Of a stretch of 64,000 nt of DNA, positions 11,623 through 45,620 are shown in pieces. Within the stretch, counting starts at the first letter, position 1. Each line of letters starts with the position of its first letter. Position numbers and translations under genes: made by a program. A model generated the notes under the pieces. It was given only the letters and a program-made list of their open reading frames with translations, did not search any database and had not been told where the DNA came from. Source of the DNA: Escherichia coli (lineage in GTDB: Bacteria > Pseudomonadota > Gammaproteobacteria > Enterobacterales > Enterobacteriaceae); assembly GCF_016026235.1 (NCBI RefSeq), contig NZ_CP065613.1; one strand, given 5' to 3'.

Positions 11623-12944
11623 CGCACGATAATATCGATATTCTGGTGGTGGATGATGACATTAGCCACTGCACTATTTTGCAGGCTTTACTGCGCGGCT
11701 GGGGCTATAACGTCGCGCTGGCGAACAGCGGGCGACAGGCGCTGGAGCAGGTGCGGGAACAGGTTTTTGATCTTGTGCTTTGCGATGTGCGAATGGCGGA
11801 GATGGACGGCATCGCCACGCTGAAAGAGATCAAAGCGTTAAACCCGGCGATTCCGGTACTGATTATGACCGCGTACTCCAGCGTCGAGACGGCGGTAGAA
11901 GCGTTGAAAACCGGGGCGCTGGATTATCTCATCAAGCCGCTGGATTTCGATAACCTACAGGCGACGCTGGAAAAGGCGCTCGCGCATACGCACAGTATTG
12001 ATGCTGAAACACCTGCGGTGACTGCCAGCCAGTTCGGTATGGTCGGTAAAAGCCCGGCGATGCAACACCTGCTCAGTGAAATCGCCCTCGTCGCGCCATC
12101 GGAAGCCACGGTGCTGATCCACGGCGATTCCGGCACCGGTAAAGAGCTGGTCGCCAGGGCGATTCACGCCAGTAGCGCACGTAGCGAAAAACCGCTGGTA
12201 ACGCTCAACTGTGCGGCACTCAACGAATCCTTACTGGAATCTGAATTGTTCGGTCACGAAAAAGGGGCGTTTACTGGAGCCGATAAACGCCGGGAAGGGC
12301 GCTTTGTTGAGGCGGACGGCGGCACGCTGTTTCTCGATGAAATTGGCGATATCTCGCCGATGATGCAGGTGCGTCTGCTGCGTGCGATTCAGGAGCGCGA
12401 AGTTCAGCGTGTCGGTAGCAACCAGACTATCTCGGTTGATGTCCGGCTGATTGCGGCGACCCATCGCGATCTTGCCGCAGAGGTGAATGCCGGGCGTTTT
12501 CGCCAGGATCTCTACTATCGCCTGAATGTGGTGGCGATTGAAGTACCATCGCTGCGGCAACGGCGGGAAGATATCCCTCTGCTGGCTGGCCATTTTCTGC
12601 AGCGCTTTGCCGAGCGTAATCGCAAGGCGGTAAAAGGTTTTACGCCCCAGGCGATGGATCTGTTGATTCATTACGACTGGCCGGGAAATATTCGTGAGCT
12701 GGAAAACGCGGTGGAACGGGCAGTGGTGCTGCTGACCGGGGAATATATTTCCGAACGCGAGCTGCCGCTGGCGATTGCCAGTACGCCGATCCCGCTGGGG
12801 CAAAGTCAGGATATTCAGCCGCTGGTGGAAGTGGAAAAAGAGGTGATTCTGGCGGCACTGGAGAAAACGGGCGGCAACAAAACTGAAGCCGCCCGTCAGT
12901 TAGGGATCACGCGTAAAACGTTATTGGCAAAACTGTCGCGTTAG
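11619..12944 (+). CDS. zraR: sigma54-dependent response regulator ZraR (441 aa)
   Basis: Receiver domain, AAA+ sigma54-activator core ([23 protein letters not shown]), C-terminal HTH; overlaps zraS by 4 nt. Confidence 0.93.
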
Positions 12945-14230
12945 TTCTGCTCGCGTTCGATAGCACGCCAGCCGATATCTTTCCGGCAGAAGCAGTCGTC
13001 CCAGTGGATATCGGTCATTAAGGCATAGGCGCGTTTCTGCGCTTCTGCCACGGTATGACCCAGCGCGGTGACGCACAGTACGCGTCCGCCGTTGGTCACT
13101 ACCTGCTCGTCATCCGCCAGTTTTGTGCCCGCGTGGAACACTTTGCCGCCTGCCACTTCTTCCAGCGGCAGGCCGTGGATCACGTCACCGGTGCGGTAAT
13201 CACTCGGATATCCACCCGCAGCCATCACCACGCCGAGAGAAGCGCGTTCATCCCACTCGGACGTTTTCTCGTCCAGTTTGCTTTCACAGGCCGCCAGGCA
13301 GAGCTCAACCAGATCGGACTTCATGCGCAGCATAATCGGCTGGGTTTCCGGATCGCCAAAGCGGCAGTTAAATTCAATAACCTTCGGATTGCCCTGTTTG
13401 TCGATCATCAGGCCCGCGTAGAGAAAACCGGTGTAGGTGTTGCCTTCCGCCGCCATGCCTTTCACGGTTGGCCAGATAATACGTTCCATGGTGCGCTGAT
13501 GAACGTCATCGGTTACTACCGGCGCGGGGGAGTAAGCGCCCATCCCGCCGGTGTTTGGTCCGGTATCTTTATCGCCTACGCGTTTGTGATCCTGGCTGGT
13601 AGCCATCGGCAGCACATGCTCGCCGTCCACCATCACGATAAAGCTCGCTTCTTCGCCATCGAGGAACTCTTCGATAACGATGCGATGACCCGCGTCGCCA
13701 AAAGCGTTGCCCGCCAGCATATCGTGAACAGCCGCTTCCGCTTCTTCCAGCGTCATCGCCACGATAACGCCTTTCCCGGCAGCCAGACCGTCCGCTTTAA
13801 TGACGATTGGCGCGCCTTTCTCACGCAGATACGCCAGCGCAGGTTCTACCTCGGTGAAGTTCTGGTATTCCGCCGTAGGGATCTTATGGCGGGCCAGGAA
13901 ATCTTTGGTAAACGCTTTTGAGCCTTCCAGTTGGGCCGCACCTGCGGTTGGGCCGAAGATTTTCAGCCCGGCGGCGCGGAAGGTATCGACCACGCCTTTC
14001 ACCAGCGGCGCTTCCGGGCCGACGATGGTCAGATCAATCTTTTCGTTTTGTGCGAAATCCAACAGCGCCGGGATATCGGTCACGCCAATAGCAACGTTTT
14101 GCAGCGCGGGTTCCAGCGCAGTGCCTGCATTACCCGGAGCAACAAAAACAGTCTCAACCAGCGGCGACTGGGCCGCTTTCCAGGCCAGCGCGTGCTCGCG
14201 CCCGCCGTTACCAATCACTAATACTTTCAT
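12941..14230 (-). CDS. purD: phosphoribosylamine-glycine ligase PurD (429 aa)
   Basis: MKVLVIGNGGREHALAWKAAQSPLVETVFVAPGNAGTA... Confidence 0.95.
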   Translation of the reverse strand: MKVLVIGNGGREHALAWKAAQSPLVETVFVAPGNAGTALEPALQNVAIGVTDIPALLDFAQNEKIDLTIVGPEAPLVKGVVDTFRAAGLKIFGPTAGAAQLEGSKAFTKDFLARHKIPTAEYQNFTEVEPALAYLREKGAPIVIKADGLAAGKGVIVAMTLEEAEAAVHDMLAGNAFGDAGHRIVIEEFLDGEEASFIVMVDGEHVLPMATSQDHKRVGDKDTGPNTGGMGAYSPAPVVTDDVHQRTMERIIWPTVKGMAAEGNTYTGFLYAGLMIDKQGNPKVIEFNCRFGDPETQPIMLRMKSDLVELCLAACESKLDEKTSEWDERASLGVVMAAGGYPSDYRTGDVIHGLPLEEVAGGKVFHAGTKLADDEQVVTNGGRVLCVTALGHTVAEAQKRAYALMTDIHWDDCFCRKDIGWRAIEREQN

Positions 14231-37263: not shown

Positions 37264-37336
37264 CCTGTAGGCCTGATAAGACGCGTAAAGCGTCGCATCA
37301 GGCACTATGAATAAGATGCCGGATCATGCATCCGGC
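37264..37336. repeat. REP elements between the convergent yjbB and pepE
   Basis: CCTGTAGGCCTGATAAGACGCGTAAAGCGTCGCATCAGGC and GCCGGATCATGCATCCGGC. Confidence 0.8.
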
Positions 37337-37343
37337 AATTCAC

Positions 37344-38033
37344 TTAAAAACGGTGACCCGCTTCCAGCGGAACCGCTTCTTCACCGGCCTTAAACACATA
37401 GGTGGTGTTCGGGCCACCCAGCGTTGCGTGACCTTTACTCACTGTGATCCAGTTACCTTCCGGTAGACCAATAATCGTCAGTTCTGGCGCGACGACCAGC
37501 AGTTCGCGAATACGCTGTTCACGGGTTTCACCTTTATGGCCTTCCGGCAACGCGTTGGTGAAGTGCGGGTTGATTTGCAACGGGAACAGATTCAGCGCAT
37601 CGAAACCTTGCGGATCGACAATCGGCATATCGTTGGTGGTACGAATGGTTGGGCAAGCAAGGTTAGCGCCTGCGCTCCAGCCAATATACAGCGCGCCACG
37701 TTTAACCACGTCAGTAATTGGTGCCAGCAGCCCGCGCTCGCGGCACTGTTTCAGCAACTGGAAAGTATTCCCGCCGCCGACAATCACGATCTCAGCATTT
37801 TCAATCGCGGCAACGGGATCGACAACGCTATGAATACCGGTGACAGAAACACCCAGCGGAGCGAGAACCGCAGCCGTTTTCTCTGTGTAATCATCCCAGG
37901 TCTGCGTTACGCCAGCGAAAGGGATAAACACCGCTGAGCGGCGACCCTGCAACTGTTCAGCAATTAGCGGCAGTGCATGTTCCAGCCAGGCTTTACCCGG
38001 CAGCGTCGAGTTACTCAATAAAAGCAGTTCCAT
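37344..38033 (-). CDS. pepE: alpha-aspartyl dipeptidase (peptidase E, 229 aa)
   Basis: [42 protein letters not shown]... Confidence 0.95.
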
Positions 38034-38155
38034 TACTTCTCCGGTTAGTAAGAAATCACGGAAGGAATGCTACCACTGCGAATTTAACCACTTACTGACA
38101 TGGCTCACGATGTCACGTATTGCACAGGCGCTGAGACTGATGACAAACACAGCAT

Positions 38156-38254
38156 TGCCTGATGCGCTACGCTTACCTGGCCTACCAGATAACTGCAATA
38201 TATTGAATTTTCAAAATTATGTAGACCGAATAAGGCTTCATTCCGCATCCGGCA
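38156..38254. repeat. REP/BIME-like palindromic units at the pepE-proximal edge of the sor island
   Basis: TGCCTGATGCGCTACGCTTACCTGGCCTAC ... GTAGACCGAATAAGGCTTCATTCCGCATCCGGC. Confidence 0.65.
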
Positions 38255-38413
38255 TAAACAATGTGCACTTTGCCACCAATTTGAGCGCCCCTTAAGGCGC
38301 TGATATTTTTTATGCTTCTCGTGCAAATTGTGCTGCTTCAGCAATCAGCAGCACATCCGGTCGCGAAGTTGCTGGTGCGACCAGCCAGCGACATGCAGAG
38401 TTGAGTAACGCGA

Positions 38414-39643
38414 TTAATCATGGGAAATTGCCTCTGCATGAGTGAGCAGATATTGCTCCGCCTCACCGGACCAGATCCCCTGATGACGCGCCAGAATCGC
38501 CGCCAGTGCTTGATCCTTAATCTGCGTGAGTGACGTCAGCGGCAGGTATTTCCCGGTATACACCAGCTTTTTGCCGCCGCCGACGGCAGGCAATTCAAGC
38601 GTGGTTTCGCCCGCGGCATTCAGCCCAAGAATATGTGTTACCACTTTTGCGGCCTGCACTTTTTTCTCTTCGATCAGTTTGACCGCCGCGCGCATGTCGT
38701 CGGTATTGCCGCCTGACGTGCCCACGTAGTGGGTAAATGCATAATGCACATCGTAGAAATTAATTGGCGCGCTGAAATGTTTATCCTGCGGTCCGGCGAA
38801 GAAATTCAGGCAACCATCTGTCGCCAGCAAGGAAGAGGCGAGAGTCACCAGTCCTTCATTAGGCACAAAGACGAAAATATCATCGAAGCCGTGACCGCCA
38901 CTCAGCGCCATTAACGTATCAAATGCTGCATCGGTGGCATTGAGATAATGAATCAGTGTTTGCGGTTCTGATGGATAGTGCTTGCGCGCATAACTCAATT
39001 TATCGTTGTCGGTATCGGTAATGACGAGCAGCGACGGGTTAACTGGTCCATGCAGCGCATAATCAATCGCCAACAGTCCCATTGGTCCGGTGCCGCCGAG
39101 GATCAGCGTGCGCCCTTGCGGGCGAATCCCCATCGTGTGGTTATAACTACCTTCCTGAAGATGATAGTTGGCGTTGAACGCGCCAATCACGCAGGAAAGC
39201 GGTTCAACCAGTGAGCCTTCAAAATAGGTTTCGCCGTCGTATGCCAGCAGGCAATCTTGTTCCATGACCTCGTTGGGAATAACCACATGCGTGGCTTCGC
39301 CGCCCACCCACGGGAAGGAGTAGCCGGGGCAGTCCGGGCGGTCGGGGAGTTGCAGGTTGGCCTGAATCACATAACGCTGACCCGGCTGGAATTTGTGCTG
39401 CCACTTTTTACCCAAGGCCAGAATATCGCCGCAAAACTCGTGGCCGATGATGATGGGGTTGGTCGCCACATCGTCGGGTACTTTTTTATGGTTTTCACCC
39501 AGATTGGCCTCTTTCCAGGAAGAGAGGCACAGGCTGTCAGTGACCACCGTCGCGAGGATTTCATCCTCCTGCATTTCAGGAAGGTCAAAGGTTTCCAGGC
39601 GTAAATCACGTTTACCATAAAGACGCAGAGCTGTTGTTTTCAT
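38414..39643 (-). CDS. sorE: L-sorbose-1-phosphate reductase (Zn-dependent MDR-family dehydrogenase)
   Basis: MKTTALRLYGKRDLRLETFDLPEMQEDEILATVVTDSLCLSSWK...; MDR fold (GHEFCG); ATG 39643 preceded by GAGGTGG. Confidence 0.8.
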   Translation of the reverse strand: MKTTALRLYGKRDLRLETFDLPEMQEDEILATVVTDSLCLSSWKEANLGENHKKVPDDVATNPIIIGHEFCGDILALGKKWQHKFQPGQRYVIQANLQLPDRPDCPGYSFPWVGGEATHVVIPNEVMEQDCLLAYDGETYFEGSLVEPLSCVIGAFNANYHLQEGSYNHTMGIRPQGRTLILGGTGPMGLLAIDYALHGPVNPSLLVITDTDNDKLSYARKHYPSEPQTLIHYLNATDAAFDTLMALSGGHGFDDIFVFVPNEGLVTLASSLLATDGCLNFFAGPQDKHFSAPINFYDVHYAFTHYVGTSGGNTDDMRAAVKLIEEKKVQAAKVVTHILGLNAAGETTLELPAVGGGKKLVYTGKYLPLTSLTQIKDQALAAILARHQGIWSGEAEQYLLTHAEAISHD

Positions 39644-39694
39644 AAACCACCTCATGTTGAGCGATGGCCCCGGCAGTCGTGCCGGGGCGAAGAA

Positions 39695-40519
39695 TCAGGA
39701 CAGGAAGCCCAGCGCATTACCGATAATCCCTAAGCCAAACAGGGCGAAAATCAGCCATACCGGGTTAATTTTTTTGTTGAGCAGACGAACCATAAGCAGC
39801 GTCAGACCGAGCGCCAGCAAACCAGGGCAAAGTTGGTCGAGAATGTTCTGCACGGTCATGGTGACGGTGGAGCCATCGGCGGCATGCGTTTGTGAAACCA
39901 CCAACGGTACGTTGATTGACGTCCATTTGGTGACCAGCACGCCCATCACAAACAGTCCGAGAATCGACGCGCCTTCGGTGAGTTTTTGCAGCACATTCCC
40001 GCCCATATCGCTGACGATATTCACCCCTTTGCGAAAGCCGAGCTGTAGGCCATACCACTTCATCGCCAGACGCACCGCATTGAAAATAAAGAAAAACAAA
40101 AGCGGGCCGAGGATGTTGCCAGAAAGTGCCAGAGATGCGCCGAGCGCAGCGGTAATCGGGCGCAGCGTTCCCCAAACCAGTGGATCGCCAACCCCTGCCA
40201 ATGGTCCCATCAGACCGACTTTGATGCCGTTAATGGTACCGTCATCAATTTCCGCGCCGTTGGCCCGCGCCTCTTCCATGGCGGCAGTGACGCCGATGAC
40301 CGGGCCACATACGGCTGGCGTGGTATTGAAGAACACCAGGTGTCGCCTGAGCGCCGCAACCTGATCCTCTTTTAATGGGTAAAGTCGCTTGATGGCGGGG
40401 ATCATGTCGTAGCAAAAGCCCAGCCCGTGAATACGTTCAAAGTTAAAGGACGCCTGTTGCAGGTTGGAGCGCAGAAACATGCTCACCAGATCGCTGCGTG
40501 TAATTTTTCTCTGTTCCAT
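39695..40519 (-). CDS. sorM: PTS mannose/sorbose-family EIID component
   Basis: MEQRKITRSDLVSMFLRSNLQQASFNFERIHGLGFCYDMIPAIKRLYP... typical EIID; ATG 40519 preceded by GGAG. Confidence 0.8.
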   Translation of the reverse strand: MEQRKITRSDLVSMFLRSNLQQASFNFERIHGLGFCYDMIPAIKRLYPLKEDQVAALRRHLVFFNTTPAVCGPVIGVTAAMEEARANGAEIDDGTINGIKVGLMGPLAGVGDPLVWGTLRPITAALGASLALSGNILGPLLFFFIFNAVRLAMKWYGLQLGFRKGVNIVSDMGGNVLQKLTEGASILGLFVMGVLVTKWTSINVPLVVSQTHAADGSTVTMTVQNILDQLCPGLLALGLTLLMVRLLNKKINPVWLIFALFGLGIIGNALGFLS

Positions 40520-40529
40520 GATGGCTCCG

Positions 40530-41327
40530 TTAATCGTCAAGTTGGTCAAGGGCGGTGGAGGTGGTGGCCTGGGGTTGAGGTTCAGCTTTACGCCACTGTG
40601 GATTTAGCTGGATGTAGACCAGGGCCATGATCACGCCGACGCCACCGAACGCCAGCAGACTGAGATCGAGGTAGCCACCTGCGAGGAAACCGAGGAAAAA
40701 GAAAGGCATCAAATATTTCACGCCCATCATACGTAGCACCATGGCGTAACCGACCACCACGATAAAACCGCCAGCAATTTGCAGACCGCGCGTCACGAAT
40801 TCCGGTATCGCGCTCAGCATATTGCTCACCATATCGGCGCTGACGAACAGTGAGACAATCAGTGCCGGAATAGCAACGCGCAGCGCCTGCACGCCAAGCG
40901 CGGAGACATGCAGAATATCGAGAGTGCGAAACCGTGCTTCTTCCGCTGCTTTATCCGCCGCGTGCTGGAACACTACGGTGATGGTACGGGCAAACACAGT
41001 CAGCACCTGGCCTGCCGCAGCCACAGGCAACGCGATGGCGATTCCGGTGGCGATGCTTTGCTGACCAACGATAACCAGAATGGCGGAGATTATGCTGGCG
41101 AGTGCAGAATCCGGAGATTGCGCCGCGCCGACGTTCATCCAGCCGAGAGCTATCAATTCCAGCGTACCACCGAGTATTATTCCGGTTTTTAAATCACCGA
41201 GAATTAAACCAATCACCGTACAGGCAATTAACGGGCGATGAGTCTGGAATTCATCCAGCACGCTGCCCATTCCGGCAATACAGGAAAAAAGAAATATAGC
41301 AATAATTTGTAGGGTACTTATTTCCAT
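40530..41327 (-). CDS. sorA: PTS mannose/sorbose-family EIIC component (265 aa)
   Basis: MEISTLQIIAIFLFSCIAGMGSVLDEFQTHRPLIACTVIGLILG... polytopic EIIC. Confidence 0.8.
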   Translation of the reverse strand: MEISTLQIIAIFLFSCIAGMGSVLDEFQTHRPLIACTVIGLILGDLKTGIILGGTLELIALGWMNVGAAQSPDSALASIISAILVIVGQQSIATGIAIALPVAAAGQVLTVFARTITVVFQHAADKAAEEARFRTLDILHVSALGVQALRVAIPALIVSLFVSADMVSNMLSAIPEFVTRGLQIAGGFIVVVGYAMVLRMMGVKYLMPFFFLGFLAGGYLDLSLLAFGGVGVIMALVYIQLNPQWRKAEPQPQATTSTALDQLDD

Positions 41328-41392
41328 GATTTGTCACCTTTTAAGTGTCGTCATCCCTGCCTGTTAAAGCATATGTACACTGGCGCTATTAT

Positions 41393-41887
41393 TTAATTTG
41401 CGATTAACTGTTCGTTTATTTTGTCGATAATATTGATTGAGGGATCTGACGCTACGACGCGTAAATCCAGTATGACGCCAAGATTATTTAACTCATGAAA
41501 TGCGTTAATATCATCATCATCTAATGAAACCGCTTTGGTTAACTGTTTTTTACCGGGCCGCCAGGCCATGCCGCCAATATTCAGGGTGCCTATTTTTACC
41601 CCCTGGCGAACCATCGCTAAGGCATCCTGTGGGCGAGTGAAAAGATAAAAAACGGTTTCGTCCTGATATTGCGGGTTGTGATAAACCGCGACGGCTTTTT
41701 CAATATTGACCACGTTAACCTTCATTCCCGGTGGCGCAGCCTGACGCAATAATGTCCGGCGAACTTCATCGTTATAAACTTCGTCATTGCAGATAATAAT
41801 GCGCTGGGCGTTAGCCACTTTCGACCAGACGGTAGTGACCTGACCGTGGATCAGGCGGTCATCAATGCGGGCGAGCGTAATGTTCAT
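41393..41887 (-). CDS. sorB: PTS mannose/sorbose-family EIIB component (164 aa)
   Basis: MNITLARIDDRLIHGQVTTVWSK... EIIB-Man signature with phosphorylatable His. Confidence 0.8.
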   Translation of the reverse strand: MNITLARIDDRLIHGQVTTVWSKVANAQRIIICNDEVYNDEVRRTLLRQAAPPGMKVNVVNIEKAVAVYHNPQYQDETVFYLFTRPQDALAMVRQGVKIGTLNIGGMAWRPGKKQLTKAVSLDDDDINAFHELNNLGVILDLRVVASDPSINIIDKINEQLIAN

Positions 41888-42294
41888 CAGAAATCCTCCT
41901 CTGTCGTTGCCAGTTGTTTCCAGACAACGCAGGTTTGCTTTGCGATTTGTGTCAGGTGTTCACACAGTTCATCAACATTCATGCTGTCCTGGTTATCAAC
42001 CAGTTCGAGCGCCAGCGGCAGAGAAAGGCCGCTGATTACCCGCAGACGAGGATTGCGCATCGCAAGCATCGCTGCCGCATTCCACGGGCTGCCGCACTGT
42101 AAATCCACGGCAATCAGCCACTCATCTTGATTGTGAATGCTTACTAACTTTTCCAGCTTTGCTACGATGTCTCCGGCGTTCTCGCCGGGCACAAATTCAA
42201 CTGCCTCGACCCTGGCGTCGCCGTACACCATCTGAACCGATTCCAGCATGGCGCAAGCTAATTTGCCGTGGGCGCAAAAAATGGCATTGACCAT
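41887..42294 (-). CDS. sorF: PTS mannose/sorbose-family EIIA component (135 aa)
   Basis: MVNAIFCAHGKLACAMLESVQMVYGD... EIIA-Man fold; stop overlaps the sorB start by 1 nt. Confidence 0.8.
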   Translation of the reverse strand: MVNAIFCAHGKLACAMLESVQMVYGDARVEAVEFVPGENAGDIVAKLEKLVSIHNQDEWLIAVDLQCGSPWNAAAMLAMRNPRLRVISGLSLPLALELVDNQDSMNVDELCEHLTQIAKQTCVVWKQLATTEEDF

Positions 42295-42303
42295 AAAGCC
42301 TCC

Positions 42304-43110
42304 TTAGCCGCGCGTTTTGCCGCCCGCAATGTTAGTGGTTACTCCGGTGATATAGCTGGCGCGTTCAGACAGCAGATAACAAACAAAATCAGCGACTTCT
42401 GCTAATCTTCCGGCGCGCCCAATAGGAATGGCGTTTTTGGTATAGCCTTCACGCAGCTGCTCGACGGTGATATTGCGCGTCCACGCCAGCGCTTCTTCAT
42501 ATTCCGGCGTGCGCAGTCCTGTTTTTTCCAGAATCCCCGGCGCGATACCGACCACACGGATACCGTGTTTACCCAATTCTTTCGACCAGGATCGCGTGAA
42601 GCTATTAAGCGCGGCTTTGGTAGCGGCGTAACAGCTTTGGCCTTCTGAGCCTTCCAGTCCACTTTCTGAGGAAACATTCACAATCACGCCATCATGTTGT
42701 TTGACCATCTGTCGCGCCACCGCCTGCGACATCAGAAAAACGCCTTTCTGGTTGATATTGAACATTTTTTCGAATGCAGCTTCGTTGAGTTCATACTGCC
42801 CGGCAGGCGCTTTGTCATCGACCAGCAGACGCGGGAAATTGACCCCGGCGTTATTGACCAGACCGTCGATGCGACCAAAACGCTGGATAATTTCCGCTAC
42901 CGTATGATTTACCTCTTTGGCGCTGGAAATATCGGTCGGCCAAAACTGATAGCCTTTATGACCTTCATATTGACCATCGCCACCGTGAATATCTACCATC
43001 TGTACGTTTGCGCCTTGTGCTAATAATTCCTCTACAATCGCCAGACCAATACCGGATGCGCCGCCGGTGACGATAATGATTTTATCCTGCAAATTTAACC
43101 ACGTTTGCAT
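42304..43110 (-). CDS. sorD: D-glucitol-6-phosphate dehydrogenase (SDR family, 268 aa)
   Basis: MQTWLNLQDKIIIVTGGASGIGLAIVEELLAQGANV... with TGGASGIG Rossmann motif and YxxxK. Confidence 0.8.
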   Translation of the reverse strand: MQTWLNLQDKIIIVTGGASGIGLAIVEELLAQGANVQMVDIHGGDGQYEGHKGYQFWPTDISSAKEVNHTVAEIIQRFGRIDGLVNNAGVNFPRLLVDDKAPAGQYELNEAAFEKMFNINQKGVFLMSQAVARQMVKQHDGVIVNVSSESGLEGSEGQSCYAATKAALNSFTRSWSKELGKHGIRVVGIAPGILEKTGLRTPEYEEALAWTRNITVEQLREGYTKNAIPIGRAGRLAEVADFVCYLLSERASYITGVTTNIAGGKTRG

Positions 43111-43179
43111 AACAGACTCCTGATTTTAGATAATAGGGACCCGCCGTAATTTTTATTACGGTAAACATCGGGAAGATTT

Positions 43180-44127
43180 TTATTTCAGTAATAGTTCAGC
43201 TGTGCTGCTATTCGTTACCAGACAATTAATATATTTTCCACGCAGTGCACCAACAATTCCGCTGTATTTTTCTTCACTCATGGCAATGCCAATGGAATAC
43301 CGCGCCTGCTTTAATTTATTCATTTCGATAGAGAGTGTTTTTTCGCTCATATTCGTTTCAACCATTGCGCCGTGAATATCAAAAAAGCGCGAGCAAATAT
43401 CGCCAGCAACCTGGCGGGCATTCAGGTCGTCACTCTCTTCACCACCATAAAACGCATGCCAGTTAGCGCCGTCGCGAATGGCCGGTGAGCCAATTCCCAC
43501 CAGGGCGACATCCAGATTATCCCAGTAGGCAGAGATGGTTTTAAAGTGCTGAGACTGCATGATCCCATTACGAATTAATGGGTTATCCAGCAGAGCCGGA
43601 AAATCCGCGAGATGCGATTCCCCTTTCAGCTTCGCTGCCGCGCTGTAGGTTAATGTGTTTACGTGATAGCGGCTTTCGAGTTTACCGGACGGTCCGCCAA
43701 TAATTGGTACGCAGATTAACTGCCGCGATTGCCCCGCCTGCGGCAAGTTTTCAACCAGTGCGCTCACCGCGCGACCCCAGGAAAAACCGACAATATCGCC
43801 AGGTTCCAGCAAGCGATCCAGCAGTTGCGCGCCGTGTAACCCCATCATCGCCAGTTGAGTCTCTTCATCCTCATCATTTCCCGACACCACCACAACGTCT
43901 TTCAGGCCAAACTTTTGCTTCAGTTGCTGCTCCAGCCAGAGATTTTCGTTGTAGTCATAGTTGATGGCGATGGTGACAATTCCCTGATCGCGGCCTCGTT
44001 TAAGCAAGCGGCTGATGGTGGTGCGGTAAATACCCAGTTCGAGCGCGATTTGCGCCTGCGTCATATCCTGTTCGTAATAGAGTTGGGCAATCTTCACAAT
44101 CAAACGGATATCGTCACTGTTTTCCAT
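43180..44127 (-). CDS. sorC: SorC-family sugar-binding regulator of the sorbose operon (315 aa)
   Basis: MENSDDIRLIVKIAQLYYEQDMTQAQIALELGIYRTTISRLLKRGRDQG... N-terminal HTH; ATG 44127 preceded by AGGAGG. Confidence 0.8.
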   Translation of the reverse strand: MENSDDIRLIVKIAQLYYEQDMTQAQIALELGIYRTTISRLLKRGRDQGIVTIAINYDYNENLWLEQQLKQKFGLKDVVVVSGNDEDEETQLAMMGLHGAQLLDRLLEPGDIVGFSWGRAVSALVENLPQAGQSRQLICVPIIGGPSGKLESRYHVNTLTYSAAAKLKGESHLADFPALLDNPLIRNGIMQSQHFKTISAYWDNLDVALVGIGSPAIRDGANWHAFYGGEESDDLNARQVAGDICSRFFDIHGAMVETNMSEKTLSIEMNKLKQARYSIGIAMSEEKYSGIVGALRGKYINCLVTNSSTAELLLK

Positions 44128-44474
44128 TGCCGCCTCCTGGTTCTGCACATTTGTGCAAATACGCTTTCTCACCGCTTGATCTGATATAACCCCATCATGA
44201 GGGCCTTTCAAAGCGATTTTTCACTCTTTGCATGGGGAGAAATAGCGCTTTCTCTTGCACATTTGTTTCTCTGCGTAGTAGTCATCAGCACAGGTGTGCA
44301 GCGATTCGTAATATGTTGATTATCCTTATTTTGCCAGGCAAATTTGCATCGTACTTCCGGAGACACTTTTGTGATAAAAGGCGTGGCAGATCACATTTAA
44401 TTTCGACGTTGCCGCATAACCCTGTTTTTCCCCGCTAAGAGGTACGGTATATTCCGCGTTTTACAGGAGAATTT

Positions 44475-45347
44475 ATGCTGCCCGACTCATCAGTCCGTTT
44501 AAATAAATACATCAGCGAAAGCGGAATTTGCTCACGCCGCGAAGCGGATCGCTATATCGAGCAAGGCAATGTGTTCCTTAATGGCAAGCGAGCCACCATT
44601 GGCGATCAGGTGAAACCCGGCGACATTGTGAAAGTAAACGGTCAGTTGATTGAGCCTCGGGAAGCCGAAGATTTGGTACTTATCGCCCTGAACAAGCCCG
44701 TCGGTATTGTCAGCACCACCGAAGATGGCGAGCGCGATAACATTGTCGATTTCGTTAACCACAGCAAACGCGTGTTCCCGATTGGCCGCCTGGATAAAGA
44801 CTCCCAGGGGCTGATTTTCCTCACCAATCACGGCGATCTGGTGAATAAGATCCTCCGTGCGGGTAACGATCATGAGAAAGAGTATCTGGTGACGGTAGAT
44901 AAACCGATTACCGATGAATTTATTCGTGGTATGGGGGCGGGAGTGCCGATCCTCGGGACGGTGACGAAAAAGTGCAAAGTCAAAAAAGAAACTCCGTTTG
45001 TCTTCCGCATTACCCTGGTGCAGGGGCTGAACCGTCAGATCCGTCGCATGTGCGAGCATTTCGGCTATGAAGTGAAAAAGCTGGAACGTACGCGCATTAT
45101 GAACGTCAGCTTAAGCGGCATTCCGCTGGGAGAATGGCGCGATTTAACCGACGACGAGCTTATCGATCTCTTTAAGCTCATCGAAAATTCCTCTTCCGAG
45201 GCAAAACCTAAAACGAAGGCCAAACCGAAAACGGCGGGCATCAAACGTCCAGTCGTTAAGATGGAAAAAACGGCGGAAAAAGGCGGTCGCCCGGCGTCCA
45301 ACGGTAAGCGTTTTACCTCGCCGGGGCGTAAAAAGAAGGGGCGCTAA
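44475..45347 (+). CDS. rluF: 23S rRNA pseudouridine synthase RluF (290 aa)
   Basis: [45 protein letters not shown]... S4 domain + RsuA-family catalytic core. Confidence 0.93.
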
Positions 45348-45620
45348 TCAGCGCCTGCCGCGCGTCGACGTATTTGCTGACCAGCTAAATGACGCTTCAG
45401 GATCCGGTTTATAAGCCTGCTTTTTCTTCAATTGGCGGGCTTTTTTTGCTTCAGCCTCACGCTCAACCATTAATTTATCGATGTAATCTTTCTTAATGCT
45501 GTTGGTTTCGGAGTTGGTCAATACGCGACCATGCGCAATCCGCGCCCGATCCAGCAGTGTTTTAAGTTCACGCTGCTCGCGTTCAGTCATCTCTTTTTGG
45601 GTAATACGGGGGAGTGCCAT
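45348..45620 (-). CDS. yjbD: DUF3811-family protein YjbD (90 aa)
   Basis: MALPRITQKEMTEREQRELKTLLDRARIAHGRVLTNSETNSIKKDY... Confidence 0.9.
   Translation of the reverse strand: MALPRITQKEMTEREQRELKTLLDRARIAHGRVLTNSETNSIKKDYIDKLMVEREAEAKKARQLKKKQAYKPDPEASFSWSANTSTRGRR

Follow-up and report, generated by a model that had tools for sequence, protein, structure and literature searches.

The L-sorbose operon sorCDFBAME at the pepE-rluF site of Escherichia coli: a probable ancestral resident affected by later deletions

The sor operon of Klebsiella pneumoniae, an L-sorbose phosphotransferase system (PTS) and catabolic operon, was reportedly characterised by the Lengeler laboratory, and SorC of Klebsiella is described as both a repressor and an activator. 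In Escherichia coli, the sor genes are c4981-c4987 of strain CFT073 and have also been described in sequence types ST131 and ST648 (PMC2831201, PMC12817954, PMC13410766). A CFT073 fragment cloned in DH5alpha gives growth on L-sorbose (PMC2831201), and a study from 2025 showed sorbose induction together with knock-out and knock-in phenotypes (PMC12817954). A survey of ~44,000 genomes found sor in >86% of the genomes in each phylogroup other than A (9.6%) and B1 (12.1%); the same study noted sdhL in ST648 only, where it was called an insertion and was sorbose-induced (PMC12817954). How E. coli acquired sor has been listed as an open question (PMC13410766). Here we analyse the sor operon in a 64,000-nucleotide stretch of E. 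coli contig NZ_CP065613.1 (the window), where it lies between pepE and rluF.

The seven-gene operon is already known biology, as an initial annotation of the window had acknowledged: it is of textbook standing, its function in E. coli is proven (PMC2831201, PMC12817954), and recent work has returned to it as a marker of fitness in high-risk E. coli lineages. The initial annotation also described the operon as inserted, as an accessory island whose mechanism of acquisition was unclear, and on these points our analysis leads elsewhere. We consider it probable (roughly 85%) that the segment is a chromosomal L-sorbose catabolic operon, resident here since before Escherichia, Citrobacter and Klebsiella split and later subject to deletions in E. 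coli.

The sor genes and their chromosomal neighbourhood

The gap between pepE and rluF (38034-44474) is filled by seven intact, co-directional open reading frames (ORFs) on the minus strand (Table 1). The ORFs, their family matches and the RefSeq annotation of a 100%-identical record (NZ_CP065615.1), from which the gene starts were taken, bear out the seven genes initially annotated; positions 37300-45400 are 100% identical to E. coli strain FDAARGOS_943. The proposed identities, the sorCDFBAME order and the match to Klebsiella likewise hold: SorC aligns to K. pneumoniae SorC (PDB 2W48) with 608 bits, residues 1-315 to 1-315, SorB aligns to the K. pneumoniae sorbose-specific IIB protein (PDB 1NRZ) with 305 bits over 160 residues and contains the RIDDRLIHGQ motif with its conserved histidine, and further genes match NCBIfam models. 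For SorE, no NCBIfam equivalog matched above cut-off and both Pfam matches, ADH_N and ADH_zinc_N, are weak (E ~ 1e-6), the Zn type being a prediction from the fold; 84-97% identical orthologues are found at this position of the operon in 30+ loci.

From these assignments, SorF, SorB, SorA and SorM would form enzymes IIA, IIB, IIC and IID (EIIA to EIID) of a mannose-family PTS that takes up L-sorbose as L-sorbose-1-phosphate. SorE would then reduce L-sorbose-1-phosphate to D-glucitol-6-phosphate, which SorD would oxidise to fructose-6-phosphate, and SorC would control the operon from a promoter within 44128-44400. Function and induction are carried over here from the papers on near-identical alleles and may be expected to apply to the window's genes. 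The primers that delimited the cloned CFT073 fragment (PMC2831201) map to window positions 38384-38413 and 44446-44473 and thereby enclose exactly the seven genes with sdhL excluded, so these seven genes, together with the region upstream of sorC, are enough to allow growth on sorbose.

Among the seven, sorF evolves fastest, with 74-94% identity between genera versus 93-100% for sorM and sorA. Between two E. coli strains, its nucleotide identity is 93%, in agreement with the published split of sorF into four clusters within E. coli. In the sdhL-positive E. coli strain SCPM-O-B-8794 (locus L007, 4068-4880), the sorD match covers about two thirds of the gene, which may be a pseudogene there. A longer, TTG-initiated sorC ORF reaching to 44211 was rejected as the gene, its upstream part being kept as palindromes and not as codons.

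To place the operon in the wider family, SorE was used as a query and the neighbours of 80 loci, kept from 196 SorE matches at one genome per species, were charted. The operon lies at the same site and in the same orientation, divergent from rluF and upstream of pepE, in >25 loci that represent eight or more enterobacterial genera; the full conserved layout is lysC-yjbD-rluF<>sorC-D-F-B-A-M-E>...>pepE<yjbB. This layout occurs in Escherichia whittamii, another Escherichia species, Escherichia albertii (on a partial contig) and three Pseudocitrobacter species, as well as in at least seven Citrobacter genomes, the Klebsiella oxytoca group, K. indica, Raoultella, two Enterobacter isolates, Cedecea and others, some of these without pepE. 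The intergenic region between sorC and rluF can be aligned across genera.

Divergence of the operon also follows that of its surroundings. At protein level, identities in sor rise and fall with those of the flanking core genes from species to species, and nucleotide identities are of the same order for sor and for pepE/rluF both among E. coli (96-100% versus 96-98%) and between the window and E. whittamii (90-94% versus 91-92%). The G+C content of the segment is 51.1%, compared with 52.4% in the rest of the window, and the profile has no step at the borders. As the initial annotation had noted, there is no integrase- or insertion sequence (IS)-like ORF in the ORF listing of the window, and a tRNA scan of 34-48 kb found none. 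Judged as a genomic island, the segment shows neither mobility features at its borders nor atypical composition, and relatives carry it at the same site. Cross-genus synteny, flank-like divergence, native G+C content and the lack of mobility features together argue for ancestral residence: on these comparisons, the most economical view is that sor occupied the rluF-pepE site before Escherichia, Citrobacter and Klebsiella split, and that the empty site of K-12 is derived. If the operon is ancestral at the site, nothing is left to explain as acquisition, and K-12 would represent a deletion. The published phylogroup pattern (PMC12817954) agrees with such a loss.

In our collection of 5426 complete E. 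coli genomes, 2865 carry the sor operon at the pepE-rluF site, in keeping with the variable presence near metH that had been proposed. The window haplotype is uncommon, its best non-self match being 98.6% identical and only 38 genomes reaching at least 99% identity at the sdhL remnant described below.

Several observations on sor loci elsewhere deserve mention. Two Enterococcus species, Enterococcus crotali and Enterococcus ureilyticus (L034 and L036; 5400-11230), have an operon of equal gene order at 40-73% identity; Firmicutes and Enterobacteriaceae are not usually this similar, which suggests that the whole sor operon was transferred between the phyla. In Gilliamella, the sor genes stand in a different order. 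In Pseudocitrobacter (L006, L008, L082), identity to the window is 94-99% for the sor, rluF and yjbD proteins, compared with 85-86% for PepE and 90% for LysC, which hints that a yjbD-rluF-sor block was exchanged by recombination between Escherichia and Pseudocitrobacter. On the E. albertii contig (L042), the sorE match is partial and may be a pseudogene.

The sdhL remnant and the empty site of K-12

The gap between sorE and pepE, 380 bp in the window, is bigger in relatives and houses a 270-codon sdhL gene on the operon strand. The initial annotation had described this flank correctly as to its repetitive extragenic palindromic (REP) units and had overlooked an sdhL remnant at 38310-38421. Its 5' part (58 nt, 38364-38421) comprises codons 1-19, its ATG sharing bases with the sorE stop codon (ATGATTAA), an overlap found in every genus checked; its 3' part (54 nt, 38310-38363) comprises the last 17 codons, with the stop codon TAA at 38310-38312. 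Between these two ends, 701 bp have been lost. The ends are out of frame with each other, an ORF of 27 codons is left, and the window has no intact sdhL ORF of ~270 codons. The protein of an intact relative matches Haemophilus influenzae HI0607 (PDB 1NPY; E = 6e-113, aligned 1-268) and the NCBIfam model NF009202 (462 bits versus a cut-off of 306).

The deletion junction (AACTTCG/CGACC) is identical in the window, the B2 strain Seattle 1946 and O157:H7. A 151-bp probe spanning it is found whole in 2587 of the 5426 genomes, and 177 genomes retain the deleted 701 bp. E. coli thus has one locus with three alleles that can be typed by polymerase chain reaction: sor with sdhL (~3%), sor with the sdhL stump (~48%, including the window) and the empty site (~47%, including K-12). 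The cross-genus comparison indicates that sdhL was originally an eighth, translationally coupled sor gene and that the polarity of the ST648 'insertion' is to be reversed.

Whether SdhL serves sorbose metabolism is a separate matter. A shikimate-dehydrogenase-family 5-ketofructose reductase exists (PDB 7COK; PMC7954740), and by analogy SdhL might be a true eighth enterobacterial sor enzyme acting on a sorbose-related ketosugar, for example 5-keto-D-fructose. We regard this as doubtful: the seven genes without sdhL suffice for growth on sorbose, and the distant homologues have unrelated neighbours. The linkage of SdhL with sor is confined to the Enterobacterales, since homologues at 65-72% identity (in Lautropia and on other contigs) stand among unrelated genes; three such distant homologues led us to reject, as a supported claim, the idea that SdhL is generally a sorbose-pathway enzyme. 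Were the ketosugar assignment right, it would provide the first physiological context for the orphan SdhL class, and a single ancient deletion of 701 bp would have cost most E. coli, the strain of the window included, this branch of metabolism. Near one distant SdhL homologue, on a metagenomic contig (L096, 11378-13104), we observed a DarT/Macro (DarTG-like) pair and a YoeB/Phd toxin-antitoxin pair, which are unrelated to sor.

K-12 lacks the operon, as had been stated: in MG1655, pepE and rluF are divergent neighbours with a 211-bp spacer between them and metH two genes away, and the spacer is identical in three other sor-less strains. Its positions 1-81 (to 90 with mismatches) align to window positions 38034-38114 (to 38123), and its positions 177-211 align to 44440-44474. 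The mapping against the K-12 spacer that the initial annotation had proposed could thus be carried through, clean homology ending at 38114 and resuming at 44440; its outcome is a block replacement and no clean insertion, with ~6.3 kb in the window set against ~50-95 bp of unrelated filler in K-12. No target-site or border duplication was found at the junctions. A search of 90+ loci and the window for the origin of the filler (spacer ~97-146) returned only chance 10-11-mers; because the filler has no detectable homologue there, the K-12 allele is no simple one-step deletion of any haplotype examined.

Spacer positions 1-96 match an sdhL-positive haplotype (ECONIH1, IMT16316) that lacks the bacterial interspersed mosaic element (BIME) found in the window, the match stopping 26 bp short of the stop codon of sdhL. 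Just past the breakpoints, K-12 resembles the flanks of Citrobacter and Klebsiella, on the pepE side by TTCTGGAAAG and on the rluF side by ...TATTTTTTATC..CCCAAAGGTA. The difference removes all conserved blocks upstream of sorC and ends just before AGGTACGGTATATT upstream of rluF. The empty allele thus resembles an occupied, BIME-less site that has collapsed but kept the rluF core promoter region.

From these alleles, we infer two nested losses and their order. The first in E. coli would have been the single 701-bp deletion inside sdhL, giving the allele of about half of the complete genomes; the second, in the BIME-less haplotype, would have begun ~26 bp past sdhL, ended ~35-65 bp upstream of rluF and given the empty site of K-12. 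Seen this way, both polarities given in the published work would be reversed, with sor plus sdhL as the ancestral state and E. coli lineages differing by the two deletions, and the pattern that makes sor appear a 'pathogen-enriched' marker would actually be one of loss in phylogroups A and B1.

Sequence elements on either side of the operon

The region upstream of sorC was aligned for the window and 17 related loci from several enterobacterial genera (18 sequences). Its conserved blocks are near-invariant even where rluF is not a neighbour. Three conserved elements of TGCACA/TGTGCA type lie in 44128-44400, one of them between the candidate -10 element and the sorC start: this is the palindrome TGCACAAATGTGCA, which sits between the candidate -10 element and the sorC ribosome-binding site. 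A TTGAAA sequence lies ~17 nt upstream of GGGTTATATCAGATCA, within a conserved block at 44210-44222. The distal blocks at 44338-44398 belong to sor, since Erwinia, Pantoea and Serratia retain them without an adjacent rluF and K-12 has none of them. On the rluF side, AGGTACGGTATATT is conserved in every locus with an adjacent rluF. The cross-genus conservation suggests that the elements are candidate operators and a candidate promoter, through which SorC may both repress and activate the operon. A CRP site in the TGTGAT...ATCACA block (44364-44398) is not claimed, as the half-sites are 16 nt apart here and 4 nt apart in some genera, compared with 6 nt in the CRP consensus.

Table 1. Features at the sor locus, by position in the window, with the basis of each assignment
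Feature	Position	Strand	Basis
pepE	37344-38033	-	Above NCBIfam equivalog cut-off
Flank common to sor-less strains, upstream untranslated region of pepE	38034-38114		Local alignment with 211-bp empty-site spacer
BIME, inverted REP units 38161-38185 (+) and 38221-38249 (-)	38157-38254		REP pattern, inverted repeat
Hairpin, 6-bp G+C stem (AGCGCC-TTAAGG-GGCGCT)	38284-38301		Directly 3' of the sdhL remnant stop codon
SdhL-type shikimate-dehydrogenase-like remnant, 112 nt	38310-38421	-	tblastn with intact 270-aa relative matches the two ends only; DNA alignments
sorE, L-sorbose-1-phosphate reductase, 409 aa, medium-chain dehydrogenase fold	38414-39643	-	RefSeq name; Pfam; orthologues
sorM, PTS EIID	39695-40519	-	TIGR00828, 472 bits (cut-off 293); RefSeq start
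sorA, PTS EIIC	40530-41327	-	TIGR00822 'EII-Sor', 427 bits (cut-off 340)
sorB, PTS EIIB	41393-41887	-	PDB 1NRZ; TIGR00854, 223 bits, above cut-off
sorF, PTS EIIA; last base overlaps sorB start	41887-42294	-	TIGR00824, 146 bits (cut-off 98)
sorD, D-glucitol-6-phosphate dehydrogenase (short-chain dehydrogenase/reductase)	42304-43110	-	NF004817 'sorbitol-6-phosphate dehydrogenase subunit', 501 bits (cut-off 304)
sorC, SorC-family regulator, 315 aa	43180-44127	-	PDB 2W48; AGGAGG at 44133-44138
Perfect palindrome TGCACAAATGTGCA, candidate SorC operator	44143-44159	-	Near-invariant in all 18 aligned sequences
GGGTTATATCAGATCA, candidate sor promoter -10	44177-44192	-	Conserved; putative assignment
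CAAATGTGCAAGAGAAAG, candidate upstream SorC site, half-site as in palindrome	44248-44265	-	Cross-genus alignment
GCACACCTGTGC, candidate upstream SorC site, half-site as in palindrome	44288-44299	-	Cross-genus alignment
Distal blocks TGCAAATTTGC (44338-44348), CACAAAAGTG (44364-44373), AAATGTGATC (44389-44398)	44338-44398	-	Cross-genus alignment
rluF-proximal flank common to sor-less strains; AGGTACGGTATATT, candidate rluF -10	44440-44474	+	Local alignment
rluF	44475-45347	+	Above NCBIfam equivalog cut-off

On the pepE side, the block at 38034-38114 is conserved across genera. The REP/BIME units reported near pepE are present as an inverted pair (Table 1), which was found with a variable-gap pattern, a fixed-spacing pattern having missed both units. 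The REP pattern has eight matches in the window versus none expected, six of them beyond the BIME pair. In minus-strand RNA, the arms of the BIME pair with each other (-69.5 kcal/mol, z = -3.25). The BIME is found in most sor-positive Escherichia and is absent from the sdhL-positive E. coli strains ECONIH1 and IMT16316; compared with the REP/BIME units of E. whittamii and strain SCPM-O-B-8794, the window copies are somewhat more degenerate. In E. albertii (L042, 3526-4326), about four tandem copies of the REP/BIME segment stand between sdhL and pepE. A canonical REP also lies between yjbB and pepE at 37267-37337, with a sub-threshold naRNA4 match (44.8 bits versus a gathering score of 59.5, E = 1.4e-5). 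An Rfam search of 37.2-45.7 kb found nothing at gathering score, the sub-threshold, REP-related matches being naRNA4 (37270-37337) and ES036 (38178-38218, E = 0.69).

The hairpin with a T-run that had been annotated near the end of the operon is present at 38284-38301, with its tail at 38302-38311; it fails as a sor terminator. The terminator scan finds the T-run on the plus strand only, while sor and pepE lie on the minus strand, and the T-run, read on the opposite strand, is just the stop region of sdhL, GCATAAAAAATA. The minus-strand tail of the hairpin is CAAATTGG and contains no U-tract. Conservation is poor, the hairpin being imperfect in E. whittamii and strain SCPM-O-B-8794 and absent in ECONIH1. 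Because of the wrong strand, the missing U-tract and this poor conservation, we rejected it as the terminator of sor. The 3' end of the sor transcript is more likely set jointly by the hairpin and the BIME structure, and read-through into pepE is possible because pepE lies downstream on the same strand.

In Citrobacter and Klebsiella spallanzanii, additional sequence of variable content lies at the junction between sdhL and pepE, with gaps of 2-8 kb (L014, L011, L023, L033, L047); in L014, three ORFs of 154, 74 and 289 aa occupy 12086-13735. This junction, and not the sor operon itself, appears to be a regional insertion hot spot. Beyond rluF, the window has rluF and yjbD abutting stop to stop (45347/45348), whereas K-12 and some other strains have a 132-bp, G+C-rich, repeat-like insert (…GCCCCTTCGGGAAAAGGGTTAGGGTGAGGGGA…) between them (MG1655, L093, 4228-4359). 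The insert is independent of the sor allele, as the sor-less locus L003 is also without it.

Rival histories and comparison with known systems

Other accounts of the locus were weighed against ancestral residence. The site could originally have been empty, sor-positive E. coli having gained a 6.3-kb island from a Klebsiella-like donor by horizontal transfer. Such a gain would suit the presence of the operon in only 2865 of the 5426 genomes and the block replacement with sharp junctions between alleles, and the other contexts in Erwinia, Pantoea and Serratia together with the same-order operon in Enterococcus indicate that sor is transferable in principle. We nevertheless hold it to be very unlikely: site, orientation and intergenic sequence are shared by at least eight enterobacterial genera, sor diverges along with its flanking core genes within and between species, its composition is native, integrase, IS, tRNA and target-site duplication are all missing, and sor is present in >86% of all phylogroups except A and B1 (PMC12817954). 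More improbable again, and hardly credible, is the outcome that the initial annotation had named as its own refutation, namely that these genes encode another PTS of the mannose family (for fructose, mannose or a sugar derivative, for example) that only looks like sor. The NCBIfam models passed are indeed subfamily models common to mannose, fructose and sorbose systems, and SorE has weak Pfam matches only and no equivalog above cut-off. Yet SorC and SorB match the K. pneumoniae SorC and IIB-Sor proteins of solved structure over their full length at the 87-88% level; the gene order is identical to sorCDFBAME, and near-identical operons of CFT073 and ST131 confer or are needed for L-sorbose use (PMC2831201, PMC12817954).

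A mixed history, although unlikely, is kept as a rival because the K-12 filler is untraced and the haplotype flanks diverged long ago. The operon would then be ancestral in the family, have been lost early in E. coli, and have re-entered the sor-positive strains from another Escherichia or a close relative by homologous recombination through the pepE/yjbB and rluF/yjbD flanks. Past the breakpoints, the flanks of K-12 are nearer to Citrobacter and Klebsiella than to the window-type sor-positive haplotype, which implies two old and distinct E. coli haplotypes; the window haplotype is rare, as seen above; and the higher identity of the Pseudocitrobacter sor, rluF and yjbD proteins (94-99%) than of PepE (86%) hints at block exchange. 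On the other hand, sor varies as deeply within E. coli as the flanking core genes do, the existence of several haplotypes (sdhL-positive without BIME, sdhL-positive with BIME, and ΔsdhL) is easier to reconcile with long residence than with one re-entry, and presence in basal phylogroups with absence in A and B1 points to loss.

The reading we prefer, ancestral residence followed by deletion, has points against it as well. The operon lies elsewhere in Erwinia, Pantoea, Serratia and Mangrovibacter and has thus moved deeper in the tree, and the ~50-95 bp of K-12 filler are without a detectable homologue in any sor-positive locus examined. The locus set, being based on SorE, consists of sorE-bearing species and so is without, for example, Salmonella and E. 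fergusonii. Finally, the terminator scan calls no minus-strand intrinsic terminator after sorE, and a consensus sigma-70 scan calls no promoter in the sorC-rluF intergenic region; the missing sigma-70 call would fit a sor promoter that depends on an activator.

Among known systems, the locus shares site and genes with other sor-positive E. coli at 96-99% nucleotide identity; ST131 and O157:H7 have the common ΔsdhL form, as in the window. With the K. pneumoniae operon, it shares all seven genes, their order, their orientation and the predicted pathway, and the window SorC and SorB are ~87-88% identical to their structurally solved K. pneumoniae counterparts and of near-identical length; the seven genes show no substantive difference. 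The Klebsiella oxytoca-group and Raoultella genomes examined have an intact sdhL after sorE, whereas the window retains a 112-nt stump. With respect to the HI0607-type SdhL class, the intact enterobacterial relatives are full-length homologues, of which the window keeps the two out-of-frame ends.

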